A stretch of 64,000 bases of DNA from Escherichia coli (GTDB taxonomy: Bacteria > Pseudomonadota > Gammaproteobacteria > Enterobacterales > Enterobacteriaceae): NCBI GenBank assembly GCA_002099625.1, contig GCA_002099625.1_4857.1, one strand, 5' to 3'. This document shows, one piece after another, positions 24,268 to 56,854 of this stretch. Numbering within the stretch: the stretch's first letter is position 1; every line of letters starts with the position of its first letter. The position numbers and the translations under genes were made by a program. Below the pieces are notes generated by a model. The model did no database searches. It saw only the letters and a list, made by a program, of their open reading frames with translations, and was not told the origin of the DNA.

Positions 24268-26052
24268 ATGGAAATCAATACCTATTACGCACCCGAGGAT
24301 GTCATCGCTAAAGAGTGCAAGCACGTCGCTTATGCGACGGACGAAGAAAAAGAAAATGACTTTGTCCTCATCAAAGAGGTCATCCATACTAAGGATGGCA
24401 GGCTTATCCCGCGCTTGGTAATGCGTGAGAATTTAAAGCGTCCGGTGTACGTTACCCGTGAAGAATATCGTAACCACCAGGAGAAAAAAGAGTTCGAAGA
24501 AAAAGGAAAATGTCAAGAACTCTGGACTACTGATGCGCAGATGGCGAAGACGTTGCAGATGGGTTTAGGTGCGCGTTTCCCTGACCCGAAAAAGAACCTG
24601 CGGCGTGTTTGTACTAGCCCGTACGTTTATTGGGCCGACTTACCGATTACCAGCTGGATTAAACAGAAATACTTAAAACGCTGGCCGAACAACATCAGTC
24701 CTAACCGTCTTTGCGTATACGACGTGGAGACCAACGAAAAGGACGGCACGAAGGAACCCTGGATCGTGTCATTTATCTTAGATGATGAAATCCATTTCTT
24801 TGGTGCTAAGAACTATATGGACCGTATCGGTAAAAACGCGGAAGAAGTCATTCTCAAAAAAGCACAGGAACTGTTAAGCAAAATCGAGTTCGACGAGAAA
24901 GACAAAAAGACTGGCGAGAAGGTGACAAAGACCAAAGACATTATCAGTGGTTATAAAATCTTCACCTATACCTGCGCTACAGCAGGGCAGTGTATCGTCA
25001 GGATGTTCGAAGAGATTCATCCGCGTCTTCCTGATTTGCTGGTCGCATGGAACCACCAGTTCGATATTTCACGCATGTTAGAAACCTTGCAGAAAGAAGG
25101 TATCGATCCGCTGGGTGTCTTTAACCATCCGGATGTGCCGGAGAAATACCGTCGTCTGTGGTTTAAAGAAGACCAGGCGAACAAAAAGACGGAATCCAAG
25201 TCACTCACCAAAGCACCGTCTCAACAGTGGCACGTACTCTACTGTACTGCGTCTTTCTACTGTGTGGATGCCATGGTGCTGTTTCGTTCGTTGCGTGTCC
25301 ACGAAGGGCAACGTCCTTCGTACAAGTTATCTGCCATACTGTACACCGAACTCGGTTTACACAAACTCGACATTCCTGGACTGCCGTATGAAGATAACCT
25401 GCAATGGCACATAAAAGCACAACGGGACTACCCTGCCGAATATGCCGTATACAACATGATGGATAACTTGTTAATCGTGTTGCTGGATAAGAAGACGAAC
25501 GACCTGTCTTCAGCAATATCCATTCTGGCAGGTTTCTCAATGTACGATATCTTCCCGTCGCTACCAAAACGTATCTGCGTGGCCTTTACCTATTATCTGT
25601 ATGACAAAGGATACGTCATCGGTTCCGTAGGGTCTGCAATGCGTAACGATTACGATGAAGAGGTTATCGGTACAGACGGTTGGATTGTTACCCTGACGGC
25701 ATGTATGAATGCTGAGAACGGTCTGAATAACATTCTGGAGGAGATTGACGAATATTACTCTGCGTTCCGTGGTCAAACTGCGGATGCGGACTTAACCCAG
25801 GCTTACCCATCGGCCACAAACATGATGAACCAGTCTCGTGAGACCACACTCATTGAGCTGCTATCCATCAATGGGGTTAGTGAAGAGATTCGACGTCGCA
25901 CGGGCGTCAACTTAACTGCTGGGCGAGTTAATGCCATGGAAATAGCGACAGACTTCTTCTGCTTACCGGACAAAGACACTGTCCTGTCTACGTTCTTACG
26001 TAAGCAAGGGGAAGTAGTGACAGAGCCTATGGAGTACATCTGCGGGTTCTAA
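24268..26052 (+). CDS. family-B DNA polymerase, N-terminal 3'-5' exonuclease part (split gene)
   Basis: 594 aa; exonuclease-like motifs in order: LCVYDVETNEKDG (Exo I, D.E), VAWNHQFDISRM (Exo II, N...FD), YAVYNMMDNLL (Exo III, Y...D); no polymerase motifs in this ORF. Confidence 0.5.
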   Translation: MEINTYYAPEDVIAKECKHVAYATDEEKENDFVLIKEVIHTKDGRLIPRLVMRENLKRPVYVTREEYRNHQEKKEFEEKGKCQELWTTDAQMAKTLQMGLGARFPDPKKNLRRVCTSPYVYWADLPITSWIKQKYLKRWPNNISPNRLCVYDVETNEKDGTKEPWIVSFILDDEIHFFGAKNYMDRIGKNAEEVILKKAQELLSKIEFDEKDKKTGEKVTKTKDIISGYKIFTYTCATAGQCIVRMFEEIHPRLPDLLVAWNHQFDISRMLETLQKEGIDPLGVFNHPDVPEKYRRLWFKEDQANKKTESKSLTKAPSQQWHVLYCTASFYCVDAMVLFRSLRVHEGQRPSYKLSAILYTELGLHKLDIPGLPYEDNLQWHIKAQRDYPAEYAVYNMMDNLLIVLLDKKTNDLSSAISILAGFSMYDIFPSLPKRICVAFTYYLYDKGYVIGSVGSAMRNDYDEEVIGTDGWIVTLTACMNAENGLNNILEEIDEYYSAFRGQTADADLTQAYPSATNMMNQSRETTLIELLSINGVSEEIRRRTGVNLTAGRVNAMEIATDFFCLPDKDTVLSTFLRKQGEVVTEPMEYICGF

Positions 26053-26104
26053 AACAAAAAAAAGAAAGGCCTCTCTACCCTAGGGTAGAGAGGTACTTTT
26101 ATTT
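26052..26104. terminator. intrinsic terminator (bidirectional)
   Basis: hairpin CCTCTCTACCC-TAG-GGTAGAGAGG with an A-tract upstream and TACTTTTATTT downstream. Confidence 0.6.
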
Positions 26105-26603
26105 AGCCGCCGAAGGCGTGCATAACCAGCGAACGCAGGTCCGGGTCGTTCAAGCGACGGGCCAGGCGGTCAACGTCGTTGGTATCACGGAAACGGCCTT
26201 TATCGGCGCAACGTGCGTAACGAATCAGCATGTTAATAAAGATAACGAAGACTTCACGTTCGTCACGATTCGGGAAGTTCTCACTGATACGGTTATTAGC
26301 AGCCGGTGCGTAGAAAATACCGTTACGGTGCTTATTAGCCGCTTCTACAAAGGCGTAGAAACCATCCAGGAAGGCCTGACCGCGCAGTTTAAACAGCTCA
26401 CGGAAAGAGTGATGCAGCTTATTATACGCATCTTTCTCAGCCTGGGTACCAGATGGTTTACGTGGGCCGGCATTGTTACCTGCTTCATCGAGCATCGTGG
26501 TGATCAGTTTAACACGATATTGGTCGTCGTTGCTGTAAGAAGCGCTATCACGGACCACGCCTTCTGTACGCGGGTCAAGGGTAGTAGTGTCTTTCTTAGT
26601 CAT
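26103..26603 (-). CDS. hypothetical protein
   Basis: track ORF 26103-26678; probable start at internal ATG (MTKKDTT...) with AAGGA SD, 11 nt after the upstream stop. Confidence 0.55.
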   Translation of the reverse strand: MTKKDTTTLDPRTEGVVRDSASYSNDDQYRVKLITTMLDEAGNNAGPRKPSGTQAEKDAYNKLHHSFRELFKLRGQAFLDGFYAFVEAANKHRNGIFYAPAANNRISENFPNRDEREVFVIFINMLIRYARCADKGRFRDTNDVDRLARRLNDPDLRSLVMHAFGG

Positions 26604-26616
26604 GAGGAAACAATCC

Positions 26617-27915
26617 TTAGGTGATGTGGAATTTAGGGATGTACTCTTTAACCACGGTTTCACGACCGTGCATCGCACCCATTGCAGTGGTCATAACGTT
26701 CGAGAAGCCGGAAGAGATATCCGCAGCGATTGCCCGTGGCTCTTCTGCTTTGTGTGCAGAGGCGCACGCCGCACAACAGTCTACGTGACCTTGCTGACAT
26801 AAGATGGGTCGGCGGAGTCGAACAACTTTACCAAATTGAGTTTTCAAATACTCTTCAGTAAGTTGGGTAACTTTACCGTTAATCATCGCGTTCATGCCAA
26901 CATAACGCTTGTAGTTATACTGGTTAATTACAAGTGCATGTGTCAGTTTTGTCCCGCAATCTCCAGGCACGATTTTGTGGTTCTGGAAGATCATCTGGAT
27001 GATACGTACTTGCTCCCCGCCCTTGGCAGTTTCTGCACCACGCATGAAGGAACCTTCTCGCGTATCATTGAATTTCTCTACCAGATACTTCATCCCGGTC
27101 TGATCAACTTCCATCAGACTCGTTGGGATTAAGGTAAAATCTGCCCCTTCTTTAAAAGCGGTCTGAATACCGTACATCAGCATCAGCTTACGGCGACGCA
27201 TACGCGCTTTAGGCGAGCTGTAGAACTCAACGGACTGGTCGCCACTCAACCACTCTTTATCAAGTTCGTCGAGAGCTTTTTCAATCATAACGATAACCGC
27301 AGGGTTATCCAGCTCGTCTTTATGCTTCAACAGCAACGCATCACGTACCTTATACGCGTCAGGATGCGTTGTAAGGCTTCTAATAGTACCGGTTGGGGCT
27401 ATCCCACGACACAACGGGGCAAGCTCGTGTAGACCCCCTACAAAGCGTCCTATCATGTATGGTCGAATCGCGTCTTCGTTGTCTGGATCGGTGTCATCAT
27501 ATTCCACACAACGTTCGTACATCTCTTTACGGTAGGCTAGCGGGTCACGAGACTCTGCCAGATACGGGAGACGGGTACCGAAAGCGTAATAGATAGCAAT
27601 CCAGTTAAAGACATAGCGACCCACGGTAGTCGGAATAGGACCAGCTAAACCTGGGTACATCTCAGGACGCAATTCAAACTGCTCTTCCGGCACGAACAGC
27701 TCTTCATCTTTTTTGCACCCTTCAATCGGCACCCACTTGGTTTCTTCGTTTTCCCAGTAATGGGGCAAGCCGTCAATGTAGTTCAGGTCGTATTGCTCAG
27801 GTGGCTCACCTTTTTCATTAAAGATAGCCACGTTGAAAACCGCAATACGCCACACCAGTCTACGCCAAGCTTCTGCTTTACACGCAGCGACCAGATAATC
27901 AATCTTGTTCATCAT
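26617..27915 (-). CDS. hypothetical protein
   Basis: 432-aa ORF; cysteine cluster DCCAACASAH near the C-terminus. Confidence 0.65.
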   Translation of the reverse strand: MMNKIDYLVAACKAEAWRRLVWRIAVFNVAIFNEKGEPPEQYDLNYIDGLPHYWENEETKWVPIEGCKKDEELFVPEEQFELRPEMYPGLAGPIPTTVGRYVFNWIAIYYAFGTRLPYLAESRDPLAYRKEMYERCVEYDDTDPDNEDAIRPYMIGRFVGGLHELAPLCRGIAPTGTIRSLTTHPDAYKVRDALLLKHKDELDNPAVIVMIEKALDELDKEWLSGDQSVEFYSSPKARMRRRKLMLMYGIQTAFKEGADFTLIPTSLMEVDQTGMKYLVEKFNDTREGSFMRGAETAKGGEQVRIIQMIFQNHKIVPGDCGTKLTHALVINQYNYKRYVGMNAMINGKVTQLTEEYLKTQFGKVVRLRRPILCQQGHVDCCAACASAHKAEEPRAIAADISSGFSNVMTTAMGAMHGRETVVKEYIPKFHIT

Positions 27916-28783
27916 CTACCTCCGCGTCCCCACTAGCGTATATGACTTTCAACGCTTCCAATCCTTTCCGCAAGATTTCTCCAGGCGGGACGTTGTCGAC
28001 GTTCAACAGGGCAAGGTTCTTTTCTAAGTCACCGTAAGCCCCGTCAAACTCCGCATGAGGAATAATCGATAAGCCCACTGCATACATTGTCAGCAAATCA
28101 ATTTCGCTAATGTCTTCTACGCGAAACTCTAACGACTGCTGCACTACCGTTAAGTCTGGCTCAGCAGGCAGATTCATAAAGACAAACGCTGACGGGTTCT
28201 CAGGGAACAACCGCAAGTAAGTGACGATACGCTCTTGGCGCACATCATCGCTGTTTCGTTTCTGGCTTTCCAACGACTCTGCTGCTAAGAAGTTTTCCAT
28301 CACGGTAAGCACGCGTGGACTTACAACAGTAATCAGGTCTTCAAAGTGCAGGTTTTCGTCACCGTAAACATAACGACACATGTTCTCCAGGATATACTCT
28401 GGTGTCTCACCAGAGGAGACGATCCCGTAAAGAGCGTCGCTATCTTCAAACTCTTCGAAGGCTTCCAACACACCGTGAAGGATACGTACGGTTTCTTTCG
28501 GTTTCTGGAAGACGATTTGTGGATTAAGTCCGATACCGAGGCGGTTGCCTAATCCAACCGCTACCTTCACGATAATGGATTCCAGACGGACAGTTTCGTC
28601 CGCGGGGTCAGACAACGGGTTGCTATAAACATCGGATAACGCCACATCGTAACCGTAATCCATACCGAGCGTCACTAAATCTAGCATCGGTGCTGCACGA
28701 CCTTCGTGACGGTTGACTGTCAATACAGCCGCATAGTCGGTATAAATATCAATCATGGCTCTGTTCCATAGTGAAAAGGGCAT
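27899..28783 (-). CDS. hypothetical protein
   Basis: 294-aa ORF. Confidence 0.6.
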   Translation of the reverse strand: MPFSLWNRAMIDIYTDYAAVLTVNRHEGRAAPMLDLVTLGMDYGYDVALSDVYSNPLSDPADETVRLESIIVKVAVGLGNRLGIGLNPQIVFQKPKETVRILHGVLEAFEEFEDSDALYGIVSSGETPEYILENMCRYVYGDENLHFEDLITVVSPRVLTVMENFLAAESLESQKRNSDDVRQERIVTYLRLFPENPSAFVFMNLPAEPDLTVVQQSLEFRVEDISEIDLLTMYAVGLSIIPHAEFDGAYGDLEKNLALLNVDNVPPGEILRKGLEALKVIYASGDAEVDDEQD

Positions 28784-28795
28784 TCATACCAAGGC

Positions 28796-28830
28796 GAATA
28801 AAAAAAGAAAACGGGGCCGAAGCCCCGAAT
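28796..28830 (-). terminator. intrinsic terminator after gene 28836-29207
   Basis: hairpin CGGGGC-CGAA-GCCCCG preceded on plus by AAAAAAAGAAAA. Confidence 0.6.
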
Positions 28831-28835
28831 TTCTA

Positions 28836-29207
28836 TTAATGTCCCGTCAGATCTTTCTCCAGCTCCTTTAACGCACGTTCACCTGCCACCTGTTCGCCGG
28901 CTTTGGCGATAATCGCTTTGCGACGACGGATGTTGTCGAGCATCAGGAGTATCTGCCAGCGAGGGCGGTCGAGGAACTCGTCTATCGACATCCGGTAGTT
29001 TTCACCGACCTCTTCACGTAAGTAAGTGGCGTACCAGATATCGTAAAGACTACCGTATACCGGGTTTTCAAAATCCGACAACCCTACCTGATGGTCGCCG
29101 GTATTAAGAGCCAGTGTACGGTCATACGCTTCCAGAAGCTCGTTATGGGCTTCCTGATACGTAATAGGACGTGTGCTACGCTGCTTGAAGAGAGAGGTGG
29201 TATCCAT
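28836..29207 (-). CDS. hypothetical protein
   Basis: 123-aa ORF. Confidence 0.6.
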   Translation of the reverse strand: MDTTSLFKQRSTRPITYQEAHNELLEAYDRTLALNTGDHQVGLSDFENPVYGSLYDIWYATYLREEVGENYRMSIDEFLDRPRWQILLMLDNIRRRKAIIAKAGEQVAGERALKELEKDLTGH

Positions 29208-29251
29208 CTTGAGCGTTGTGATGATTTGCTCGGACGGAACGTCTTCCTGGT

Positions 29252-31222
29252 CTAGCCAATATCGGCGTATTGATCCAGCAAGAATTTCTGAATCTCGGAC
29301 ACCACTCGAGAGAGCACGAAAAAAACCCTGTCCGGTGAGATGGTAACAATACCACGATACAGACCGTCTTTCTCGCCGTGTGTTTTACCGCACGCCGGGC
29401 AGCGTTTACCCATGTAACCGAATACCGCTAAACGTGTACGTTCGTTGTATTCAGCAATTGCGTTTTCAAACTGGCCAACGTAGATACGGTCGGAAGACAG
29501 CTCTTCTAGCATCTCAACGATTTTCGCTGTGTCGGTTTCAGTTTGTGGGATAACCTGCATTTCACCGTTTACTTCACGTTGCTCGTTAACAGTGATAGAT
29601 TTCACCATGTGAGCATAGCGCGTTAAGCGACGGGCTTCCGCAGTTAAACGCATATGGGATTCACGTTCACGCTCGGTAGCAAATTCAGACAGCGCTGCCG
29701 TAGTTGACGCGTTAACATCTTCAATCCACTTCTCAGTGGAGTCAAAGAAGCTACCCAGGGTAGAACGGCCAAATTCAACACGCACGTCGTGGTATTCAAA
29801 TACCGAGGATGGGTCAACCTGATGCGCCGCGATATATTCGCGCTGTTCAGCAATGGAAATCACTGGACGCTCAGTACCGCGTTGACGTGCCCACAGTTGT
29901 TTCTGCAGGTCGCTAAACAGACCGGAACCGAAACGGATACAGCGTGCGATATTCAGCTTCACATCTTCCTGCTGAGTACAACCGTCCTCACCGCACATCA
30001 GCGTCCATGGAATACCAGACGGCCATTTCGCTTGCAGCGGACCCAGAATTACCAGCCAGTAGTCAGCCAGATCAATGGTATCCAACAGCACAGTACGCAG
30101 ATCGTTACCCGCGCAGTCGATGGTTGCTTCAGTAACAAACTGAAGTGCGAATTCAACCATGTGACGCATGTACACACCAGAAGACGACGACAGCATCAAA
30201 CCGTAGGTCTGCATACCGATGGTCGCAGTTTCCAGTGTGAGGCGCATGTCGAAGTCACAAAGGTCACGTTCATGCGGTGCGCGGAAGCCCACGTAGATAC
30301 CTGTGGCCGGCAACCAAACCATATTCGGAATACCCGACTTACGTACACGGCGCAAAGCAGCCAGCGCGCCAGTGTGCATATTGTCACGCGGTGCAATAGC
30401 ACCAGAAGCCTTACCGTCCGGCAACATCACACGCTGTTCCCAAGCGGTGTCGCCACGGTCCAGTGCACCCGCGAATGCTGGTACGCCGTCCTGTAGACGT
30501 GGCGGGGTCATGTTCAAAGCACGATAGATGTCGTCGTATACCTGTTGCTGTTCAGGGCTTTCGAATAGCAGCCGGCCGTCTTTCGGTGAACGTTTAATAT
30601 TACCGAGGAACTTTTGCAGGGAGTCTGCAATGATGTTAGGGTCTTGTTTCAGACCAATCAACATCTTCGACTGTGTCAGAATACGATCAGCTTCGTCTTC
30701 ACCCATTTCGGCAGTTTCAGCTAAATGGGTATTACCGAAGTTAATCTCACGCACCTGTTGTTGTTCCGGAACCTTCGGTGCTGCATCTTCCATTTCTTTT
30801 ACAGCCGGCTGGGCCGGTGCAACCGCTTCCGGAGCTTTTGGCTGCGGAGCAGGTTCTACCGCAGGCGCTTTCTCTACTACCGGTTCCGGGGCACGATGTA
30901 GGTGCTCCTGCACCTGTTCAGCAAAAGTCTGAGGTGCCGGTGGTACAGGCGCAGCAGGTTCAGGCAACGCCTCTTCTACAAACGTCGGACGCTCAAGCTT
31001 AGGCTCAGGACGATGATAGTGTTGGTGATAAACTTCTTCTGCACGGGCAAAAGAAAAATCGGGATTGGCTTGTTTAATAGCCATGATGATTGCATCCGAG
31101 GTCGCGTCATCAGGCACGGTCGGAAGAATCATCTCTTGTTGGGTAGCAGCCGCCACAGGGGCTGGCTGGTCGGGATTAGGGCGACGGGCATTACCCGGAC
31201 GCTGATCTTGGATCTCAGACAT
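29252..31222 (-). CDS. hypothetical protein with Pro/Ala-rich low-complexity N-terminal region
   Basis: 656-aa ORF; residues ~10-170 rich in P/A/E (PAPQPKAPEAVAPAQPAVKEMEDAAPKVPEQ); C-terminal CPACGK motif. Confidence 0.65.
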   Translation of the reverse strand: MSEIQDQRPGNARRPNPDQPAPVAAATQQEMILPTVPDDATSDAIIMAIKQANPDFSFARAEEVYHQHYHRPEPKLERPTFVEEALPEPAAPVPPAPQTFAEQVQEHLHRAPEPVVEKAPAVEPAPQPKAPEAVAPAQPAVKEMEDAAPKVPEQQQVREINFGNTHLAETAEMGEDEADRILTQSKMLIGLKQDPNIIADSLQKFLGNIKRSPKDGRLLFESPEQQQVYDDIYRALNMTPPRLQDGVPAFAGALDRGDTAWEQRVMLPDGKASGAIAPRDNMHTGALAALRRVRKSGIPNMVWLPATGIYVGFRAPHERDLCDFDMRLTLETATIGMQTYGLMLSSSSGVYMRHMVEFALQFVTEATIDCAGNDLRTVLLDTIDLADYWLVILGPLQAKWPSGIPWTLMCGEDGCTQQEDVKLNIARCIRFGSGLFSDLQKQLWARQRGTERPVISIAEQREYIAAHQVDPSSVFEYHDVRVEFGRSTLGSFFDSTEKWIEDVNASTTAALSEFATERERESHMRLTAEARRLTRYAHMVKSITVNEQREVNGEMQVIPQTETDTAKIVEMLEELSSDRIYVGQFENAIAEYNERTRLAVFGYMGKRCPACGKTHGEKDGLYRGIVTISPDRVFFVLSRVVSEIQKFLLDQYADIG

Positions 31223-31835: not shown

Positions 31836-31862
31836 CGTAATAATCCTTTTGAAATTAGGGGT

Positions 31863-31887
31863 TGGGTGTATACACAATATACACCCA
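31863..31887. repeat. perfect 10-bp inverted repeat (palindrome)
   Basis: TGGGTGTATA-CACAA-TATACACCCA between two minus-strand genes, without a convincing U-tract. Confidence 0.5.
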
Positions 31888-31895
31888 AAACGTGA

Positions 31896-43550: not shown

Positions 43551-43552
43551 TC

Positions 43553-47297: not shown

Positions 47298-47346
47298 GTT
47301 AGCTCCTGTCAAATTCAAGGTAGGATGCTGCATACAGCCCCCAGTG

Positions 47347-47383
47347 AAGAAAAAAAGAGGGGCCGAAGCCCCATCTTTTTTAA
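47347..47383. terminator. bidirectional intrinsic terminator
   Basis: hairpin GGGGC-CGAA-GCCCC flanked by AAAAAAAG and ATCTTTTTT. Confidence 0.6.
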
Positions 47384-47961: not shown

Positions 47962-47974
47962 TACAATACTCCTA

Positions 47975-48247
47975 TTAGCCCATCACCGCTTCCAACGGAA
48001 TGCCTTCTTCATCATCCTCATCTGCTTCAATAAGGAACTGGTTCTGCATACTGATTAGCTCGTTATGTAAAACCATGCCGTGTTCTACGCGGTCCACATC
48101 AGTAGAAGACATAAAGCCGTTATCTGGACGGAATTGGAGCGCCAACTTCATCTCAGTTTCATCGACTGGCAAACGTACCTGGAACTGGTCGCCATCAAAA
48201 TCCTGTTTGTCCACTCCAATCCTTTTGGAGCAGGTGTGTAGTAACAC
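47975..48247 (-). CDS. RNA polymerase beta'-N, exon 2 (carries the catalytic DFDGD motif)
   Basis: translation ...LLHTCSKRIGVDKQDFDGDQFQVRLPVDE... matches bacterial beta' ...[24 protein letters not shown]; track start is GTG with no properly spaced SD, consistent with a spliced exon. Confidence 0.65.
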   Translation of the reverse strand: MLLHTCSKRIGVDKQDFDGDQFQVRLPVDETEMKLALQFRPDNGFMSSTDVDRVEHGMVLHNELISMQNQFLIEADEDDEEGIPLEAVMG

Positions 48248-48249
48248 CC

Positions 48250-49660
48250 TCCCTAACTTTCATTAGGGCACAGACCATACCTTAGCCATGAGCTTTCGCT
48301 TTTAGGCTCCTCCCCACTTCGGCGCTATTCTAAGCACCTACGAGCATTTCAGCTCCGGTCGTTGAACGTTCCTCTTACGAGGCTTCGCTGCTGATTACCC
48401 ATTGTTAAAACCCTTAGCAGTATTGTTTAGCATAGGTCATCTCATTACTTGTTTCCGACTTTCGTCTCCACATGGGCAAATGAGCTTTAGGGGTTCCCAG
48501 CAATTCAGGGAGATACACATCAGAGGTTTCCCGTCTGATGGGGCAAGGTTATTCTGCTGTTAAATATTGAACTTCAAATTGTTTGTACTTTCCAGTTTGT
48601 GAGACTGCTTTGGCCACAGTGTTTCTTTTCACACCAATCGCGTTTGAAAACTCTTGTAGAGAATTCCAAATGGTTTTGATATTAGTGGTCGTATCAGTCA
48701 CACGCACCATCGATGGTACACGTTTTGGCATTTGTGATTGTGGTCTGGGTTTGCGGAGATCGATCATGTCGGTTATGGCAACATCGATATCCACCATATA
48801 CCACGCCTCATATCCAAACTTAGTCAAATCGACGGTACCGCCGTTGAGGTGAGAATAGATGAGGTGTGGTTTTATACCCACGTATTCGGCTGCTGCCGGT
48901 ACAGACGAGAACAGGAAATATGGTTCCTTACCAACCTTTCTGATGACCAGTCCTTTATTACCTGGTCCTGAGTTCTTGCCAATAGAATTCTTGGTGAGAA
49001 TCCAGTCGTCTGCCGGTAGCTTGACTTCAAACACATCATTTAGCGTGTATTGACGATTAAGTCCACGCGTGATCGAGCTTGAAACCAAGTGCCGATTAAC
49101 GCCGATATACTCAGCTGCCTTAGCCATGCTACGGAACTGAACTATATCGCCGGTCTCGAGATTTCTGACATCGACAATAATGTTGTCAGTTCTTAGACCA
49201 GTATCGAAAGCATGATTAACATTTTCCTTTCGATAACACCACTCAAGGTTTACCACAGATGGATTACTCTTAACACCATCACGATGGTTAACCTCGTCAC
49301 CACATTTATCCAGGAACACAGTCGCAACAATTCGATGTAAATGGGTTTCGTCTTTACAACCGCGCACTCCCAGGTATCCACTTTTGAGAATGAAGACCGG
49401 TAGCGGCATGACCATACCTTTTACTTTACAGTCACCCAATGCATCAACAAAGAGATCACGATAGACTGGGTGTCTGTAATACCCCTTAAAAACATACGAG
49501 GGCTCTAAATCATCGCGTAGTTTCCTACTCAACTTTTCAATAATCACAATTTATTCCCTATTACCAGTCACCGACTAAGAATAAGGAATAGCAGAATAAC
49601 ACTTTTACCGTTAGCCATCTTGATCACACGGTCAGAGATACGCAGCGAACACTGGTTAAC
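48250..49660 (-). mobile_element. putative group I intron with embedded HNH homing endonuclease, interrupting the beta'-N gene (boundaries approximate)
   Basis: conserved beta' sequence is interrupted between ...NPTLVQLSIQ... (exon 1) and ...DFDGDQ... (exon 2); between them an HNH ORF and ~300 nt of hairpin-rich non-coding sequence (48250-48548). Confidence 0.55.
48549..49547 (-). CDS. HNH homing endonuclease with NUMOD-like DNA-binding repeats
   Basis: 332 aa; HNH motif ETHLHRIVATVFLDKCGDEVNHRDGVKSNPSVVNLEW; three repeats of the type AAEYIGVNRHLVSSSITRG / AAEYVGIKPHLIYSHLNGG / FSNAIGVKRNTVAKAVSQTG. Confidence 0.85.
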   Translation of the reverse strand: MIIEKLSRKLRDDLEPSYVFKGYYRHPVYRDLFVDALGDCKVKGMVMPLPVFILKSGYLGVRGCKDETHLHRIVATVFLDKCGDEVNHRDGVKSNPSVVNLEWCYRKENVNHAFDTGLRTDNIIVDVRNLETGDIVQFRSMAKAAEYIGVNRHLVSSSITRGLNRQYTLNDVFEVKLPADDWILTKNSIGKNSGPGNKGLVIRKVGKEPYFLFSSVPAAAEYVGIKPHLIYSHLNGGTVDLTKFGYEAWYMVDIDVAITDMIDLRKPRPQSQMPKRVPSMVRVTDTTTNIKTIWNSLQEFSNAIGVKRNTVAKAVSQTGKYKQFEVQYLTAE

Positions 49661-50974
49661 ATCGGTAACAACTTCATCGATGTACAGCGTTTGAATAGAC
49701 AACTGTACCAGCGTTGGGTTACGTAACGGTATGACCATGATCCCAAGACCGCCTGGGGATTCACGAATCAGTTCTTTAAAGATTTCATCTACAAGCGGGT
49801 CATACTGCATTGCCGCTTTTGCAACGATACGTTCACATTGCCGTGACGAATAACCCCGTCGTAGCAGTTTGTTCTCGATGTGGGTCGACATCAACCCAAC
49901 CATCCAACGCCATGGTGCTTTTAACTTCCAGGCATCGTGTGGTTCTGAGATAGGTGAGATGGTTGCACGACCACCGAACGGGATATGGGTAGAACCCAAT
50001 TTCGCACGATAGTCACCCGGTTTACCTTCCATAGACTCACGACGGAAGTCCATGTGGAAGTATGTTAACTGACGGTTGGCTTTCAAAGCGCGACTAATCA
50101 GAAAACGTGGTTCGATCGCTTTACGCCGCGTATAAAGTAACGCGATATTTTTCACCGCATCGATAGCACCCGTGAACACTGGGTCTACCATGACACCACG
50201 ACGACCTTCCTCAGTAACGATAAGCTTAGAGGAGATTAGCGGTAAGTGTCTTGGGAAGAATGCATGGCGTTGCGTTTCGAATAGCTCCTTCCATTGTAAA
50301 CGTAAGCGTTCACCTTCAGCGGCGTTATGCCGATTAGGTGCGAAGATTTCCTTCCAGGCTTCCGGCGTGGTAAGGATGTTAAAGATACTAACGTGGTTAT
50401 CAACCAGATTGCGCAAGCCACGAACGAAACCGTGTTCTTCCAATACACGTTTCACAGCATGTGCGCGTTTACCGTCTGGTTCTTCTATACGGTAATACGG
50501 GTCAATCATCCACATCATCAAGTCATTACCGCGTTCGATAGTGACCTTGTTACGTTCAAACTTCTTCAACTTGCTATTAAAGAAAGCATTGAACATTGCC
50601 CAGAATCGTGGGTTGACGAAGTTACCCATTTCATCAGGTGCACGTAACCAGACATCGGATTCAATTCGATATTCAGTTACAACATAGCCACACGTCGGAC
50701 ACTTACAACCGAGATTGTAACGATGCGCGATCGGTGCCGGACAATCCAAACTACAAATCGGTGCAGAGTTCAGTTCTTCGTCAACGATTCTGTTCTGTAC
50801 CATGCGATCGATAAGTTCAGCAACTTCGATCGCATCCCCGTTAACGGCGACATCGTTAATAATAGTGGGTGGTTTAATACCTTTGGCAGCAGCTTCTATT
50901 TGCAAATCGGACAAATAGTTATCCTGACTAACCAACCGGCCGGATATTCCGTAGAATTTTGGTACCTTTCTCAC
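49568..50974 (-). CDS. RNA polymerase beta'-N, exon 1 (3' end of the ORF runs into the intron)
   Basis: N-terminal zinc finger CSLDCPAPIAHRYNLGCKCPTCGY; IPLRNPTLVQLSIQ resembles bacterial NRAPTLHRLGIQ; the last ~30 codons of the track ORF are probably intron sequence read in frame. Confidence 0.75.
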   Translation of the reverse strand: MRKVPKFYGISGRLVSQDNYLSDLQIEAAAKGIKPPTIINDVAVNGDAIEVAELIDRMVQNRIVDEELNSAPICSLDCPAPIAHRYNLGCKCPTCGYVVTEYRIESDVWLRAPDEMGNFVNPRFWAMFNAFFNSKLKKFERNKVTIERGNDLMMWMIDPYYRIEEPDGKRAHAVKRVLEEHGFVRGLRNLVDNHVSIFNILTTPEAWKEIFAPNRHNAAEGERLRLQWKELFETQRHAFFPRHLPLISSKLIVTEEGRRGVMVDPVFTGAIDAVKNIALLYTRRKAIEPRFLISRALKANRQLTYFHMDFRRESMEGKPGDYRAKLGSTHIPFGGRATISPISEPHDAWKLKAPWRWMVGLMSTHIENKLLRRGYSSRQCERIVAKAAMQYDPLVDEIFKELIRESPGGLGIMVIPLRNPTLVQLSIQTLYIDEVVTDVNQCSLRISDRVIKMANGKSVILLFLILSR

Positions 50975-50987
50975 TCTGTCAACCTCA

Positions 50988-51030
50988 ACAAAAAAAGAGG
51001 GAAGGACGGAGGCGTTAGCCCCCGTCCGTT
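50988..51030 (-). terminator. intrinsic terminator after the 617-aa gene
   Basis: imperfect hairpin GGACGG...CCGTCC preceded on plus by CAAAAAAAGAGGG. Confidence 0.45.
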
Positions 51031-51056
51031 TCCTAACTACTCAGTAACCGATTCGA

Positions 51057-52910
51057 TTACAGTTTGAAGTTGCTCAGAGACACGCCCAGACCGAAATCGG
51101 AACCGCTTGCAGACAGGCCGTTGCCAGACAGCGTGAAGTCTTCCCCACCGTTGTTGAAGAACAGAGAGGTCGCCATCGTGTTGTAGGCATTTACACCAGT
51201 CATAGACCAGGTGCAGTTGTTACGGACGAAGTCCAGCAGGCATTTACCGAAGATCGGGTTGATAGCCATATCCAGAGATTCACCGGTAGCTTGCGGTGCT
51301 TTGGATGCGAACAGAGAAGCGGCCAGTTTCAGCATGTAGATACGCTGTTGACGCTCGTTCAGTTCACGGTGGCTGTAGGACTGTGCGTTCAGGTAGCTAT
51401 AGACGTCGTTCGCGTTATCACCCAGTTTGGTAACAACGGAAATCAGGTCCATATCCTGGAAGCTACGTTTCTGTGCAGTACCGGTGTAAACACCGGAAAC
51501 AGTCGGTACGGCTGCTTTCACGATGTGGCTGCAATGGATGGTACCATTGAAGGCATCGCCCAGCTGTGCTTTCAGTGCAGAAGCAAATACTGCAGTGAAG
51601 CTGGTCGCTGCAACAACTTCGCCGTTCTGATCACGCGGGGACATGGAATTCAGAATAGCGAGCAGCTGTTTCAGAGAGTTGTCGTAACCGACCGCAATTT
51701 CAGACAGCATAGTAGACAGACCACCCAGACCGTTACCGGCACGATGGCTAACTACCAGTGCTGCTTCACGCGGTGCGAACATATCCAGGCAACCTTCGAT
51801 AGCTTCACGGCTACCGTCGATTTTGGATACATCAGGACGAGCGTCAGCACCCCAGGACAGGTATTCTGCCACACGGGAGAACTTGCGATCTTGTTTGTTC
51901 AGACGTTTCACAAACAGGTCACGCCAGCCACCGATTGCCGCGATTTCTGCAAATGCAGCCAGCAGCAGCAGTTGACGTTCATACGGTGCCATTGCACCTT
52001 CAGTTTGAGAATCGACCAGACTTACTACGATTTCAGCCTGCAGCTGTTTCAGGTCGTAGACGCCGTTAACGACAGGCTTCTGACCGGTGAAACGCATGTT
52101 GACGAAACCAGTACCGGATACACGCGGATACACCTGTACCTGATTGGTGTCCAGCAGAGTCGGAGTGGCGTCGGATACGTTGCTTGGGCTGTGCTCAACG
52201 GTGATTGCGAAATCAGCACGTTGTGCGTGGCCGTTAGCATCCACAACCGCACCATCTTCCAGCGGCATTACTGCAGCCTGATAACGGTCATGCTTACGCA
52301 GGTTCAGCGTACCCAGGTAGCCTGCGATACGACCGAAGATGCCCATCATCATCTGACCCATCAGAGTACGTGCCCACTCAGCATCCAGAACTTTACCCAG
52401 GTCTGGTACGGAGTTGATGATCATGAAGTTCGCATTGGTCAGACCATGCGCTTCCATGATGTTTTTCTGTACTACTGCCAGCACGTCTTTGTTGAACAGT
52501 TCAGTGATGGTGTAGTAGTCTTCCTGGCCGTTGTTGGTAGTTTCTTTCAGACGCAGAGACTGACCGCGTTCAAAGAAGATAATACCGTACAGCCAGTGGC
52601 CCTGCCATTGGCCTGCGACATACGCCGCGGAACCCATTTCGTTACCCACGCCGGCGATGGTGCCCCAGCGGAACGCGTTGAGGTATTCGTTGCTTTTCTT
52701 CAGCTCGTCCAGGAGGTTGACGAAGTGCATTGCATAGGTGCTGATGTTGCGGATGCCAAATGCGTTATCGAATTGGCTGACAGTAGAAGTACCCGGCACA
52801 GCAGTTTGCACTTTTACAGTCTCGTTGCCCAGACCGCCCAGTGGTGCGGTGTCTTGAGTCTGAGTGTTGTTCTGCTGAGCGTTGTTGTTAGAGTCAACGA
52901 TTTTTACCAT
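51057..52910 (-). CDS. hypothetical protein; candidate phage-nucleus shell protein (chimallin-like), speculative
   Basis: 617 aa; low-complexity N- and C-termini; own promoter-like elements and terminator; lies immediately upstream of the beta'-N gene, the arrangement I recall for phiKZ gp54-gp55; no sequence-level verification possible here. Confidence 0.3.
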   Translation of the reverse strand: MVKIVDSNNNAQQNNTQTQDTAPLGGLGNETVKVQTAVPGTSTVSQFDNAFGIRNISTYAMHFVNLLDELKKSNEYLNAFRWGTIAGVGNEMGSAAYVAGQWQGHWLYGIIFFERGQSLRLKETTNNGQEDYYTITELFNKDVLAVVQKNIMEAHGLTNANFMIINSVPDLGKVLDAEWARTLMGQMMMGIFGRIAGYLGTLNLRKHDRYQAAVMPLEDGAVVDANGHAQRADFAITVEHSPSNVSDATPTLLDTNQVQVYPRVSGTGFVNMRFTGQKPVVNGVYDLKQLQAEIVVSLVDSQTEGAMAPYERQLLLLAAFAEIAAIGGWRDLFVKRLNKQDRKFSRVAEYLSWGADARPDVSKIDGSREAIEGCLDMFAPREAALVVSHRAGNGLGGLSTMLSEIAVGYDNSLKQLLAILNSMSPRDQNGEVVAATSFTAVFASALKAQLGDAFNGTIHCSHIVKAAVPTVSGVYTGTAQKRSFQDMDLISVVTKLGDNANDVYSYLNAQSYSHRELNERQQRIYMLKLAASLFASKAPQATGESLDMAINPIFGKCLLDFVRNNCTWSMTGVNAYNTMATSLFFNNGGEDFTLSGNGLSASGSDFGLGVSLSNFKL

Positions 52911-52955
52911 TTTAAATATTCCTTAATAGTGATTGCAATCATAGTTCGGTTCGCA

Positions 52956-52972
52956 GAGATAATATCTGCCTA
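52956..52972 (-). promoter_or_regulatory. conserved promoter-like element (variant) upstream of the 617-aa gene
   Basis: AGATAATATCTGCCTAT ~45 nt upstream of the start at 52910. Confidence 0.45.
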
Positions 52973-53049
52973 TAATTTCATGGAATGCAAGTACGCCGTC
53001 GCTTACTTACAAGGCACATAGTCCAGACATTTCTCAGGAACTGTCACAT

Positions 53050-53064
53050 AGATAATATCAATCT
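53050..53064 (-). promoter_or_regulatory. conserved promoter-like element (variant), second copy in the same intergenic region
   Basis: AGATAATATCAATCT; ~140 nt upstream of 52910 and ~50 nt upstream of the plus-strand gene at 53117. Confidence 0.35.
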
Positions 53065-53116
53065 GAGATATTTTTGACTGTGACTGACTTCCTATGTGGA
53101 ATCTAAGGAGTCTGCC

Positions 53117-54184
53117 ATGTTCAGCCAAGCCGAGTTAAACCAAGTGGCCATAAAGGGTCACAGCACGGACCCCTCCGCTATAACATTAGCGGCTCACGTA
53201 AAAAACAACAGCCAGCGTATACGCAACTACTACGAACAGCTTAATCGCAGTGCTGGTAATGGCCATTTGTTGCAACAGGTGTTGTCTGCCATCGGCTATG
53301 CCGGTGAACCAGAGTACGAAGACATCGAATGGGCTTGCCGTCGCAAGCTTGTTCAGATTGGTAACGCCTTACGCTTGACGTCTGTTGGTGAGTACGGTCA
53401 AATCTTTAATAGCAAGTTTATCCAGGGCCAAGATGAGGTAATCTCTCTCGTAGCCCGCCCAGTAAATCCAGACCTTTCGTTCCGCGACTACACCCCCGCC
53501 CGTTACCTCTACCATGAGTATACCAACCTCAATTGGAAGTTCGGTGACGGACGGCCCCGAGGTGTTACGGTGATCGAAATCAACCTGGTTGCTTTGCTTT
53601 GGCAATATGTCAAAGGTCAGCAACACTACAGTCGCGGTACCGAACCTATTGCCACACCTGTGTATCTCCAACGACATGTGATCTCTCGCATGTTGCCGAG
53701 CTACATGGATATCGCCTTTGTAAATATACATCGTGCGATAGCCTTCGGGAAAGAGATTGAACCGGATGAAACATTACGTGTCATTCCTGTTCCACCGCTT
53801 CAAGCTTTAGCTGTGAAGCACGCAAAAGGCATCCGTAGTAAACTACTGGCTGCCAACCCGTTACCGGGACAAGTCTTAAACAACATCCCATTGTTCTTCC
53901 AACACCCTGATGAAGAAGGCCACACAGCACTGGAACTGATTGTCTTTCGAGAACCAGGTCAAACACTGCAGAACACCTGGCACCAGAACATGGTGAACTG
54001 GTACTGGGCACTGTTTTGTCTTCAATACAACCAGGGGAATATGGAAAAACATAAACGTACGATGTTGGTTGATTTGGCGCGTTATGTGGACTCTAAAGTC
54101 CTCACACGTTTGACCAAATCCTTCTATAACTTTATCCAACGGGATTTGATTATCCCGTTGACGACAGAGCTAGAAGAAAAATAA
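53117..54184 (+). CDS. hypothetical protein
   Basis: track ORF 53096-54184 starts at GTG; ATG at 53117 (MFSQAELN...) has an AAGGAG SD; followed by a strong terminator. Confidence 0.65.
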   Translation: MFSQAELNQVAIKGHSTDPSAITLAAHVKNNSQRIRNYYEQLNRSAGNGHLLQQVLSAIGYAGEPEYEDIEWACRRKLVQIGNALRLTSVGEYGQIFNSKFIQGQDEVISLVARPVNPDLSFRDYTPARYLYHEYTNLNWKFGDGRPRGVTVIEINLVALLWQYVKGQQHYSRGTEPIATPVYLQRHVISRMLPSYMDIAFVNIHRAIAFGKEIEPDETLRVIPVPPLQALAVKHAKGIRSKLLAANPLPGQVLNNIPLFFQHPDEEGHTALELIVFREPGQTLQNTWHQNMVNWYWALFCLQYNQGNMEKHKRTMLVDLARYVDSKVLTRLTKSFYNFIQRDLIIPLTTELEEK

Positions 54185-54234
54185 GACTTACTCTCTCCTC
54201 GCGAACACTCTTTCGAGTATTCATACTATATACA

Positions 54235-54277
54235 AAAACTACACACTTCGGTGTGTAGTTCTTTTTTTATTTTTTGT
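54235..54277 (+). terminator. intrinsic terminator after gene 53117-54184
   Basis: hairpin AACTACACAC-TTCG-GTGTGTAGTT followed by CTTTTTTTATTTTTTG. Confidence 0.7.
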
Positions 54278-54281
54278 CTGT

Positions 54282-54482
54282 CTAGTATTTTATCGTCTCC
54301 GTGAAGTCACTTGCGTATGGTTTACCCCACACGGTGATTTTGCGTTTACGTTTGGCGTCCAATGCCGTGATGTGCACTGTTTCGCCTGCTTGATGTAACT
54401 CAATATCCACACAACCCCGTTCTTCGAGGTCGCGACGGATTGTGGTTATCATCTCTGTGGATTTCCCGCTATTGCGATACAT
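54282..54482 (-). CDS. small hypothetical protein (66 aa)
   Basis: ORF downstream of the polymerase gene on the same strand; coding status uncertain. Confidence 0.35.
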   Translation of the reverse strand: MYRNSGKSTEMITTIRRDLEERGCVDIELHQAGETVHITALDAKRKRKITVWGKPYASDFTETIKY

Positions 54483-54574
54483 ACCCTTCCACCCGAATGT
54501 TCATCCCGCCCACTAAAGACCGATCTTCAAACGTAAAGGTTATCGCTTGCGGCTCTGGCTTCCGTGGAACAGAT

Positions 54575-56854
54575 TTATTCTTCCGCCTCTTCCCCATCTT
54601 CTTCCTCTCCATCACGTTCAGATTTCTTAACGTACTCACCGCTACCTAATTCTTCCTTGACCGAGTCTACAGATTCGCCGTAGTAATCCGAAAGCAGACG
54701 AGTTCTATTCTTGTCCATCATGAACACACCCAGACATTCCAGGATGTGATAGTAAGGTTCTACTGTGGAGAATGCGCTTCGGCGTGTGTCTGCAGCATCA
54801 ATCAGCTCCGGCGGAATACCGAAGTTTTCCACCAAGAACTCTGGCAGTATCAGAGTACGATAGGTACGATAGTTGTTTTCTTCGAACCACCGTGTTGCAG
54901 TGGTCTTAATCATCGGGTCTTTAATGTTTTCCAGCCACTCTTTAACGGCTGTTTTGTTCTCCAGGTTTACCGGAAGCTTCACGGCGTCATAAGGCGGTTC
55001 GTCCAGGTAGCCGTACTTCGGTCCAAAGATGGCGTTGTACATGCGGTGGTAGTGGTAGCTCTTTTCATCATCTTCAGAGTACGCACTACGGTCTTTGACG
55101 TTGGTTGTTTTCAGGTAGCCTGCTTTACCAGCACGAATAGAGTCCACCACAACGTGCTCAATTGCAGCAACCTTTTCCAGCAGAGGCAGAATCTTAATCT
55201 TATCGCCGCGCGCTACAATCTCACAGAGTTCTTTAATCGTGCGTTTGAACTCTTTCATGACCACAGGCGGTATGTTTGACGTACGTAGAGACACACCTTT
55301 AACTTCTAACTCAGGGTCGGACTTCAATTGTCCTTCCTGACCAGTGATGATGGAGAAGTAGTGTTTTGCTTTTGTGGTTAACGCAAAGGAGTCGAACTTA
55401 AATTCGTTCTTCATTGCGTACAAGAACAAACGCTCTTTCGCCACGCCAATGTTCGCCGACATGCTCGCCATCAGATGACGTAAGTGCTGGGTTGCAATAT
55501 AAATCATCGCATCCGATACGCGCGTAGCTTCACGACCGTAATGTTGACCGGTATACCACTGTGCCCACCACTGTGCAGTCATCATCGTGGAGTCGGTATC
55601 AGATACCACACCGACACGACGAACCACGTCAGGCATCCTGGCAATGTTAATCGGCAGGTTTTTGGTAGTCAGGATATTGCGAATCAAGCACGCGTACTTA
55701 CCGATGGTTTTCTGCAGATACACAGCTGAGCGAATCAGCTCTTTGTATTTTTCCTGCTTATCCCACGGTTCCGCTTTGTTCGTGTTTTCGTCTTTGAGTT
55801 TAACGTCAGAGAACGACTTACCTAACGGCACGATATCAGTACGGAACTGCGAGATAATGATCTGCATGTCACCGTCGATAGAGCGCTCAGCAGCATCCCA
55901 ATCGGTGATCTCGTCTTCCATCTCCTCGGCAATCAGCGCACCGATAAACCCACGCATGAATTCATCGTTGTATTTCGCCAGGTGGTAGAAGTCACCCATG
56001 TAGACAAACGCTGCACGTACCAGCGGGCTACAATTACCGACGTAGTGACGAATGAACTCCAGCCCTTCGTCGTTACGGAAGTAAAACTCTGCAGAGTACA
56101 TAACCACTTCCATAACCTCGTCCACTGTTGGGTAGTGGAGGTTATAGAGTTCCATACACTTCTTGAACTCCGCAAAGTTAGTCAGTGTACCAATAGACAG
56201 TAAGTGGTCGATAACACGGGACGGCGTGTCGTAGTGACGATTACCGCCCAGTAGACGTTCGTTGCCCGCGTTACCGAACGATGTAGCCGTACGGCAGGTT
56301 GACGTCAATACAGAGTGCGAAGACTGGTTAAAGATTACCGTGTACGGTGATGAGAATGCACCCGACATCCCGTTGTTCAACGTCTTAACAGCGTTCTGTT
56401 CGTTCTTTTTGTTAATACGCAGAACTTCATTACCCGCAGCACCTGCTGCGTACATCTCTTTCTTAACAACCGCACGCTTACGCACGTTCTCTGCGGTAAA
56501 TTCAGCAAGCTTAGAGCGCTTGACGTGCTCAGGCAGATAAAAGGTCAGCGACGGTGCAGAAATAATCTGCTTATCAATCACTGTACGGAACAGTTTATCT
56601 ACCGTGGTGTATTTTTCTTCGCGATCGCCGGTCTTTTGATTGCGCACCCACATCTTACACACGGGGAATTCGTGTACTAACTCACCACCAGGTTGGAACA
56701 TTTCTTCGACCTGCTGTCGACAGAACTCCAAAGAATATTTCCCGTTGGTGACGGTATGAATGTAGAGCGCCAGTTGTTCGTAGTACGCATCGATAACGTC
56801 AATGTCGCGATGATACTCGTCTTGACTAAGACGAAATGGTGAATTGTAGTCCAC
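54575..56854 (-). CDS. family-B DNA polymerase, polymerase (palm/thumb) part (split gene)
   Basis: 759 aa; VGVVSDTDSTMM (motif C, DTDS) and KTLNNGMSGAFSS (motif B-like K...N.G.SG); no exonuclease motifs in this ORF; spacing between motifs is atypical. Confidence 0.5.
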   Translation of the reverse strand: MDYNSPFRLSQDEYHRDIDVIDAYYEQLALYIHTVTNGKYSLEFCRQQVEEMFQPGGELVHEFPVCKMWVRNQKTGDREEKYTTVDKLFRTVIDKQIISAPSLTFYLPEHVKRSKLAEFTAENVRKRAVVKKEMYAAGAAGNEVLRINKKNEQNAVKTLNNGMSGAFSSPYTVIFNQSSHSVLTSTCRTATSFGNAGNERLLGGNRHYDTPSRVIDHLLSIGTLTNFAEFKKCMELYNLHYPTVDEVMEVVMYSAEFYFRNDEGLEFIRHYVGNCSPLVRAAFVYMGDFYHLAKYNDEFMRGFIGALIAEEMEDEITDWDAAERSIDGDMQIIISQFRTDIVPLGKSFSDVKLKDENTNKAEPWDKQEKYKELIRSAVYLQKTIGKYACLIRNILTTKNLPINIARMPDVVRRVGVVSDTDSTMMTAQWWAQWYTGQHYGREATRVSDAMIYIATQHLRHLMASMSANIGVAKERLFLYAMKNEFKFDSFALTTKAKHYFSIITGQEGQLKSDPELEVKGVSLRTSNIPPVVMKEFKRTIKELCEIVARGDKIKILPLLEKVAAIEHVVVDSIRAGKAGYLKTTNVKDRSAYSEDDEKSYHYHRMYNAIFGPKYGYLDEPPYDAVKLPVNLENKTAVKEWLENIKDPMIKTTATRWFEENNYRTYRTLILPEFLVENFGIPPELIDAADTRRSAFSTVEPYYHILECLGVFMMDKNRTRLLSDYYGESVDSVKEELGSGEYVKKSERDGEEEDGEEAEE

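Follow-up and report, generated by a model that had tools for sequence, protein, structure and literature searches.

A family-B DNA polymerase encoded by two distant genes of a Seoulvirus jumbo phage, with motif A probably on the exonuclease-bearing chain

Can one replicative DNA polymerase be made from two proteins whose genes lie far apart on opposite strands, and if so, what does each protein bring to the active site? The question is raised by a 64,000-nt stretch of DNA deposited as Escherichia coli (GenBank assembly GCA_002099625.1, contig GCA_002099625.1_4857.1), referred to below as the window. A first-pass annotation, made from the sequence alone, had read two open reading frames (ORFs) in it as the exonuclease half and the polymerase half of a family-B DNA polymerase (PolB), and the positions that it gave for both proved exact:

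24268-26052, plus strand: ORF A, 594 amino acids (aa), ATG start; homolog of gp44 of phage SPN3US
54575-56854, minus strand: ORF B, 759 aa, GTG start; homolog of gp18 of phage SPN3US

It is, in our view, highly probable (roughly 85%) that one replicative PolB is made up of ORF A and ORF B as its two subunits. The split is real, yet it has been published and annotated before, and the annotation thus rediscovered a known arrangement. What we add to the published account is a single, modest detail: motif A probably sits on the chain that bears the exonuclease.

The stretch is phage DNA. In megablast searches of a phage collection with either gene, the matches were SPN3US and about 30 other Seoulvirus jumbo phages at 95-99% nucleotide identity, infecting Salmonella, Escherichia and Proteus. 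Three indels aside, the window and SPN3US (reverse complement of ~4.4-67.9 kb) are colinear. It belongs to a Seoulvirus, that is, an SPN3US-like, phiKZ-related, nucleus-forming jumbo phage. ORF A is 99.8% identical in aa sequence to SPN3US gp44 (YP_009153338). ORF B has the length and both ends of the RefSeq SPN3US coding sequence (CDS) for gp18, with 96% nucleotide identity, and its residues 1-745 are 100% identical to the homologue of Escherichia phage vB_EcoM_Lh1B. The two genes are separated by 28.5 kb and lie on opposite strands; order, orientation and a spacing of ~28 kb are the same for the SPN3US pair, both members of which RefSeq labels "DNA polymerase".

All five short motifs quoted by the first-pass annotation are present, and their functional residues are invariant across 26-28 divergent homologs (28 sequences aligned for ORF A and 26 for ORF B, with identities down to 22-35%). 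Because the acidic and aromatic residues are invariant in these alignments, the motifs are not chance matches. Three of the five are in ORF A, whose features are as follows:

24268-26052, plus strand: ORF A as a whole, with a PolB N-terminal domain, a 3'-5' exonuclease domain, the first palm element (motif A) and a conserved C-terminal tail
24718-24732, plus strand: Exo I, YDVET, residues 151-155; D152 and E154 invariant in 28 homologs; aligned to RB69 D114-I-E116
25051-25065, plus strand: Exo II, NHQFD, residues 262-266; W261 and D266 invariant; aligned to RB69 N217...F221-D222
25450-25464, plus strand: Exo III, YNMMD, residues 395-399; Y395 and D399 invariant; aligned to RB69 Y323-N-I-I-D327
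25783-25848, plus strand: motif A, residues 506-527, D506-A-D508-LTQAY513PSATNMMN521QSRETT
25849-26049, plus strand: C-terminal tail, residues 528-594; conserved E530, R543, GINLTGG (546-552), N555, E558 and P567

The three exonuclease motifs follow the PolB patterns DxE (Exo I), Nx2-3(F/Y)D (Exo II) and Yx3D (Exo III). Family profiles were required to see the relationship to known polymerases, as single-sequence phmmer searches with ORF A or ORF B against PDB sequences returned only noise; the PDB set searched contained no solved structure from this family. The family phrog_3011 ('DNA polymerase') matches ORF A end to end (E=6e-251). Searched against the PDB with hmmsearch, the ORF A family profile found RB69 gp43 (E=5e-12) in three collinear stretches, the last of which (raqvaDaDvtqaYPsaeailNlskeTt) covers motif A, and hhalign aligned residues 124-531 of ORF A continuously to residues 86-434 of RB69 gp43 (probability 98.4-99.1%, with E=8e-19 at the upper value). 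No Pfam family, PF03104 and PF00136 included, matched ORF A, either as a whole or as its C-terminal 125 aa, and NCBIfam gave nothing useful; the gp44-type partner chain is currently without a family in either database.

The polymerase motifs had been attributed to the 759-aa gene. This was only two-thirds right: the exonuclease motifs on ORF A and motifs B and C on ORF B stand as described, but motif A is found on ORF A. The invariant C-terminal segment DADLTQAYPSATNMMNQSRET of ORF A aligns to motif A of RB69 gp43 (D411, Y416), with RB69 404-431 as the partner in both hmmsearch and hhalign. In RB69 gp43, D411 is the motif A metal ligand and Y416 the sugar steric gate. The stretch D508-LTQAY513PS is set against RB69 D411-LTSLY416PS, which places D508 on D411 and Y513 on Y416 in the PolB pattern Dx2SLYPS. 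Residues D506, D508, Y513, P514 and N521 are invariant in 28/28 homologs and T526 in 27/28, and by column conservation residues 498-567 are the best-conserved part of the whole protein. The tail at 528-594 is lineage-specific and has no RB69 counterpart, the alignments stopping at residue 531.

The remaining polymerase elements are on ORF B:

54575-56854, minus strand: ORF B as a whole, with an N-terminal lineage-specific module (residues 1-95), palm strands, fingers, a ~200-aa helical insert, palm with motif C, thumb, and TRLLSDYY with an acidic tail
56360-56398, minus strand: motif B (fingers), Q153-NAV-K157-TLN-N161-GMS-G165; KTLNNGMSG is 157-165
55655-56242, minus strand: helical insert, ~residues 205-400, including N226; preceded by the post-fingers palm helix LTSTCR (183-188) and followed by motif C
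55589-55603, minus strand: motif C, S418-D419-T420-D421-S422 (DTDS 419-422); 5/5 residues invariant in 26 homologs
55295-55366, minus strand: KKRY-like motif and EVKG; K497-H498-Y499 and EVKG (517-520) correspond to RB69 K706-R707-Y708 and KIMG (726-729)
54578-54703, minus strand: C-terminal TRLLSDYY (718-725) and tail; T718, L720, S722 and D723 invariant

The hidden Markov model (HMM) of PF20286, 'Divergent Family B DNA polymerase', matches residues 11-725 of ORF B at HMM positions 3-705 (E=4e-284), and phrog_2927 matches it with 1067 bits. The match of the canonical family PF00136 is partial and weak, with residues 94-189 on HMM positions 98-190. RB69 D411 maps to about position 61 of that HMM, ahead of the point at which the ORF B match starts. 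Canonical PolB similarity in ORF B begins at ISAPSLTFYLPEHVKRSKL; its aligned counterparts in Pol zeta and Pol delta are the strands that connect motif A with the fingers.

From the fingers onwards the PolB elements of ORF B are in place. Motif B was aligned to the fingers of Pol zeta and Pol delta and to PF00136, and its spacing is that of RB69 Q556-K560-N564-G568. It has the form Kx3NSxYG with Ser164 in place of the usual Tyr, and Q153, K157, N160, N161, S164 and G165 are invariant among the 26 homologs. Motif C was aligned to RB69 YGDTDS (619-624), in the pattern (Y/x)GDTDS, within a larger hhalign placement of ORF B 415-571 on RB69 617-773. In the KKRY-like region K497, H498, Y499, K519 and G520 are invariant, and RB69 gp43 reciprocally matches PF20286 at residues 707-758. 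Pol delta runs directly into motif C at the place where ORF B has its helical insert. Within the insert, the block ERAAFVYxGD288LYHLAKYN296 (from residue 274; 55991-56035, minus strand) is invariant, conserved like the catalytic motifs, and has no counterpart in canonical PolBs.

The C-terminal TRLLSDYY corresponds to 'TRLISDFY', described as a putative clamp-binding-like motif by Kazlauskas and Venclovas 2011 (PMC3201878). It is followed by a 34-residue acidic tail of low model confidence (residues 726-759; 54578-54679, minus strand), which ends in ...SERDGEEEDGEEAEE. The tail is similar in close relatives, while distant relatives end at SDYY, and it is reminiscent of acidic partner-binding tails in other replication proteins.

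A motif A aspartate on ORF B was not found: among the 26 homologs there is no invariant acidic residue ahead of motif B. As a candidate for this role D77 was rejected, as it is present in 23/26 homologs, sits in a hairpin turn and has no SLYPS-like context. Since motif A is on ORF A, motif C is on ORF B and ORF B lacks a conserved motif A Asp, the polymerase catalytic centre is likely to be a composite of the two proteins. The chain break would then fall inside the palm, at about RB69 gp43 residues 435-455, between motif A and the pre-finger strands.

The predicted structures support the assignment of both chains to PolB. The best Foldseek match in the PDB was RB69 gp43 for either AlphaFold model (ORF A: E=5e-13, TMq 0.49; ORF B: E=1.6e-5, TMq 0.23, a value kept low by the insert and by the domain poses). 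When modelled alone, ORF A has a predicted local distance difference test score (pLDDT) above 90 for residues 1-457, which cover the N-terminal and exonuclease domains, and below 50 at 458-567, even though this segment is highly conserved. The mean pLDDT for ORF B alone is 79.6; motif C lacks a predicted hairpin and scores ~62, and the acidic tail is below 50. Palm pieces of low confidence in the single chains are the behaviour expected of two halves of one palm sheet. Each ORF therefore matches PolB by profile as well as by structure, and the split family-B reading of the first-pass annotation, which a failure of either ORF to match would have undone, is upheld.

Several points weigh against a composite enzyme. 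The motif A stretch by itself scores just 6-8 bits in hmmsearch, and its weight comes from collinearity and invariance. Outside PF20286 the link between ORF B and canonical PolB profiles is modest (hhalign E ~0.002, probability ~15%; Pol zeta E=0.011). The low pLDDT of ORF A 458-567 could also stem from the shallow alignment of 28 sequences. Finally, Kazlauskas and Venclovas 2011 modelled the catalytic aspartates D229 and D398 of phage EL both on the ORF B-type chain (PMC3201878), and Iyer et al. 2021 treat the exonuclease as a stand-alone protein (PMC7824862).

The last two points make up the strongest alternative, in which ORF B is self-sufficient and carries both catalytic aspartates while ORF A is a loosely joined stand-alone proofreading exonuclease, like bacterial DnaQ. 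We regard it as unlikely. Both active-site motifs have been reported in the polymerase chains of three phiKZ-like phages, with D229 and D398 in EL (PMC3201878), and polymerases without a fused exonuclease, which is 'encoded elsewhere', are described as well (PMC7824862). When these residues are located on an EL-like homolog (L008:268-2370), D398 does fall on the second Asp of DTD, but the counterpart of D229 in ORF B is N226 (window 56176-56178); the comparison assumes that EL numbering equals that of the EL-like homolog, which the match of D398 supports. The column of N226 holds D in 19/26 homologs, N in 6/26 and E in 1/26, with Asn in the present phage, which is variation not expected of an Asp that binds metal. 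The invariant D288 in FVYxGDLYHLAKYN loosely resembles motif A, but both N226 and D288 come after motif B, which is the wrong order for a PolB, and both lie in confident helices (pLDDT >90) and not at the end of a strand. Given the variable column and its position after motif B, at the junction of two confident helices, N226 is unlikely to be the motif A ligand. The better match to motif A, DLTQAYPS-x5-N-x-S-x-ET, is on ORF A and is invariant in 28/28 homologs, an invariance that would be left unexplained if the segment were redundant.

Split inteins join some phage and archaeal PolBs. Trans-splicing by a split intein, or joining at the RNA level, could in principle give a single-chain polymerase here too, as there are split-intein PolBs in other jumbo phages such as MIJ3 (PMC6892783) and a group I intron elsewhere in the window, but this is, as far as the sequence shows, extremely improbable: neither ORF has a match to an intein or Hint family in Pfam at E<=1; the extra tail of ORF A is just ~65 aa long and ends in ...EYICGF, ORF B begins with MDYNSPF, and the broken ends show neither the Cys/Ser of an intein N-junction nor the ...HN-[CST] of a C-junction; the termini of both proteins are conserved as protein sequence across the family; the sole Rfam intron match, at 48.2-48.6 kb, is within an RNA polymerase gene; and the genes, which lie on opposite strands, have separate starts, stops and terminator-like hairpins.

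It is just as hard to believe that ORF A and ORF B are accessory or relic proteins and that the genome is copied by another phage polymerase or by that of the host. Nothing was found in favour of this reading. The catalytic residues of both ORFs are all invariant, the two genes are part of the group's conserved core (tblastn distribution; PMC10299810), and the DNA polymerase of the related phage RAY is found in the phage nucleus together with phage DNA (PMC10299810). Another DNA polymerase was neither annotated in SPN3US nor found by a six-frame profile search for family B and motif scans. In the full annotation of SPN3US the only CDS named as DNA polymerase are gp44 and gp18; the CDS 'polymerase' ACQ60_gp189 was rejected as a second one, being the N-terminal fragment gp77 of nvRNAP beta. 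In the six-frame translation of the whole SPN3US genome (130,067 residues) the ORF A and ORF B family HMMs match one ORF each, and no paralog of either half was found. A phmmer search of the same translation with RB69 gp43 gave no match, and regular expressions for motifs A, B and C gave one match each in the six frames, all in these two genes. The profile search covered family B; families A, C, X and Y are excluded by annotation and literature only. A complete polymerase elsewhere, the other observation that the first-pass annotation had named as fatal to its reading, was thus not detected in the complete reference genome.

The pair is also widespread. With tblastn, 295 phage records gave a match to ORF A and 301 a match to ORF B; seven genera were listed in both searches, and for each of them the counts agree. 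The genes thus occur together in about 300 phage genomes, in every case tens of kb from each other. They are 28-30 kb apart in Seoulvirus and ~30-37 kb apart in phiKZ-, EL- and AH04-like phages, in differing relative orientation. No fused A-B form was seen among 95 + 120 cluster representatives or the best 150 of 901 ORF A representatives, and in these sets ORF A homologs have ~550-650 aa and ORF B homologs ~710-770 aa. An outlier of 894 aa (P0233) was rejected as an unsplit form, its C-terminal extension being unrelated. The split is ancient and universal in the clade, without a single-chain backup.

Three further observations came out of these searches. A similar spacing is kept in very divergent lineages, despite the extensive rearrangements reported for the group. 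The ORF A homologs of phiKZ-, PhiPA3- and 201phi2-1-type phages were matched by tblastn in 2-3 pieces that span up to 2.4 kb, against 1.8 kb here (PhiPA3 NC_028999, 74326-76694; phiKZ NC_004629, 78008-79888; 201phi2-1 NC_010821, 85862-87967), which suggests insertions (intron, intein or extra domain) in the exonuclease/motif A chain of these phages. In the SPFM records (LR535901, LR535905, LR535911 and others) the genes were matched in 25-35 small pieces, and odd 'hypothetical proteins' of 520-680 aa occur (P0039-P0042, P0051-P0053, P0181, P0210); these look like frameshift-laden sequence records rather than biology.

A composite enzyme would work as follows. The genes for ORF A and ORF B would be transcribed and translated separately and the proteins would assemble non-covalently into an obligate heterodimer. 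ORF A would contribute the N-terminal domain, the exonuclease for 3'-5' proofreading and, from the palm, the first strand and helix with motif A (D508 as metal ligand, Y513 as steric gate). ORF B would contribute the palm strands leading into the fingers, motif B (K157, N161), the helical insert, the hairpin of motif C (D419, D421), the thumb and the KKRY-like motif for primer binding. With the chain broken inside the palm, neither protein should polymerise by itself. Candidates for the interface are the ORF A tail (528-594), as a docking element for ORF B, and the N-terminal module of ORF B (1-95), because neither has an RB69 counterpart.

The two proteins would physically assemble in trans, as the first-pass annotation had proposed; this is also the published interpretation (PMC5694885, PMC5105663, PMC7824862, PMC3201878). 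It would be reinforced by the presence of motif A and motif C on different chains. Our assignment apparently departs from the published ones in that motif A is on the gp44-type chain and not on the gp18-type chain. Phages of the phiKZ type in general probably have a composite active site, with the motif A Asp and the steric-gate Tyr coming from the 'exonuclease' protein and motifs B and C from the 'polymerase' protein.

Should the gp44-type chain indeed carry motif A and the steric gate, expression of the PF20286 gene alone would give an inactive protein, and two published domain maps would need correction. The pair would be a further natural example of the tolerance of the PolB fold to cuts. 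In nucleus-forming phages, two separately made proteins would have to enter the phage nucleus before DNA synthesis can start, and the obligate heterodimer could serve as a tool for work on how proteins are imported into the phage nucleus or, with SPN3US amber mutants, as a genetic handle.

The surroundings of the two genes contain the following elements:

24238-24243, plus strand: TATAGC, 25 nt upstream of the ORF A start; part of ACG-N14-TATAGC
26069-26094, no strand assigned: bidirectional terminator-like hairpin between ORF A and the convergent downstream gene
56880-56885, minus strand: TATAGC, 26 nt upstream of the ORF B start; within TTTTTTCACG-N14-TTATAGC
56921-56942, minus strand: terminator-like hairpin with T-run between the SH3DP gene and ORF B
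56947-57357, minus strand: SH3-fold gene, 136 aa, upstream of ORF B; PF20287 'SH3 fold domain associated with phage DNA polymerases' (E=3e-35); phrog_3235

The upstream regions of ORF A and ORF B are alike over ~27 nt (ACGTTACCCACAAATCAGTATAGCAGA at 24220-24243, plus strand, versus ACGTATCCCGCAAGTCTTATAGCTGA at 56880-56902, minus strand). The layout TTTTTTCACG-N14-TTATAG recurs ahead of a third gene, 62451-62867 (element at 62880-62902, minus strand), and ACG-N12-16-TATAG precedes several more genes (~53199, 46109 and 4841, minus strand). The ACG-N14-TATAGC element could represent a class of phage promoters through which the two subunits are co-regulated. For TATAGC by itself there is no enrichment (22 occurrences in the window versus 18 expected); the longer pattern is rare but was defined post hoc and is weak evidence. 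The SH3-fold gene is a conserved neighbour of ORF B, and its product may be a third subunit, as suggested by Iyer et al. 2021 (PMC7824862).

Apart from the polymerase genes, the three indels relative to SPN3US deserve mention. One is a 1.4-kb insertion (48203-49613, minus strand) within an RNA polymerase subunit gene (ACQ60_gp243), which it splits into the ORFs 49568-50974 and 47975-48247. It contains a group I intron (Rfam RF00028 at 48251-48579, 53.4 bits) and a 332-aa ORF (48549-49547) with NUMOD1 (E=1e-14) and a sub-threshold HNH_3 match (20.1 versus the 24.8-bit cutoff), as in HNH/NUMOD homing endonucleases. Because the full element is present in only 3/33 Seoulvirus records, with a version of ~450 bp in five others, the insertion is a sporadic mobile intron. 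Two small SPN3US genes are absent here, namely 59021-59651 (ACQ60_gp206) and 13824-14167 (ACQ60_gp247), the corresponding window positions being ~8239-8253 and 54510-54575. Divergent from ORF A lies a 450-aa gene (22845-24197, minus strand), the SPN3US 'putative virion structural protein 1'. With the HExxH motif ILHEVGHV in its sequence and similarity to Peptidase_M48 that stays below threshold (E=0.004, 17.3 versus the 20.3-bit cutoff), its product may be a virion-associated metalloprotease.

How does the pair compare with polymerases that are already known? A split polymerase was reportedly found in phage OBP by Cornelissen et al. in 2012. The divergent PolB of phiKZ-like phages was discovered by Kazlauskas and Venclovas in 2011, in EL, phiKZ and 201phi2-1 (PMC3201878). 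SPN3US gp18 and gp44 were described as a "split subunit DNA polymerase" (Thomas 2016/2017; PMC5694885, PMC5105663), and Iyer et al. 2021 reported the divergent polymerase with its long helical insert and SH3 neighbour, the exonuclease being 'encoded elsewhere in the genome' (PMC7824862). The pair in the window is this same phiKZ-related system, with an ORF B that belongs to PF20286 and phrog_2927, a distant phrog_3011 chain and an upstream PF20287 gene, and the genes themselves show no difference from SPN3US gp44 and gp18.

RB69/T4 gp43 (PDB 1IG9, 1CLQ) is the best profile and structural match for each half and has the same motif order (Exo I-III, A, B, C, KKRY). It differs in being a single polypeptide without the ~200-aa helical insert before motif C. 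Its sliding clamp is gp45, while phiKZ-like phages are not known to have a clamp (PMC3201878).

With motif A and motif C on separate chains, the functional precedent is the split gp43A/gp43B of T4-like phages, the fragments of which co-purify and are active (PMC2988022). The division of labour is alike: the N-fragment has the N-terminal domain, the exonuclease and motif A (N-fragments of 502 aa also hold the latter two), and the C-fragment has motif B, motif C and the thumb. Carriers of this split are the Aeromonas phages 25, 44RR, 31 and 65 and the Acinetobacter phage 133 group (Petrov et al. 2006, 2010; PMC2988022, PMC3061061). The T4-like break is at the fingertip (near RB69 residue 500), and the cistrons are neighbours with 2 bp to 3 kb between them. 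In the present pair the break is ~50-65 residues earlier, the genes are 28.5 kb apart on opposite strands, each half has an extra terminal module, and sequence similarity to the T4-like proteins is seen at the profile level only.

The PolB of Methanothermobacter thermautotrophicus (Kelman et al. 1999) is also split between separate genes, 85 kb apart, with the break in the palm C-terminal to the fingers, and that of Rhodothermus phage RM378 is split where its N-terminal domain meets the palm (PMC3061061). The break points of both differ from the one described here and the lineages are unrelated. The vRNAP and nvRNAP beta and beta' fragments of the same phages, several of which are encoded in the window, are likewise parts of one enzyme made from dispersed genes; they belong to a different family, and the analogy is one of genome style only. 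If our assignment of motif A is correct, the phiKZ-type pair would represent a fourth, independent split position for PolB, located in the palm immediately behind motif A, with terminal modules specific to the lineage holding the halves together.

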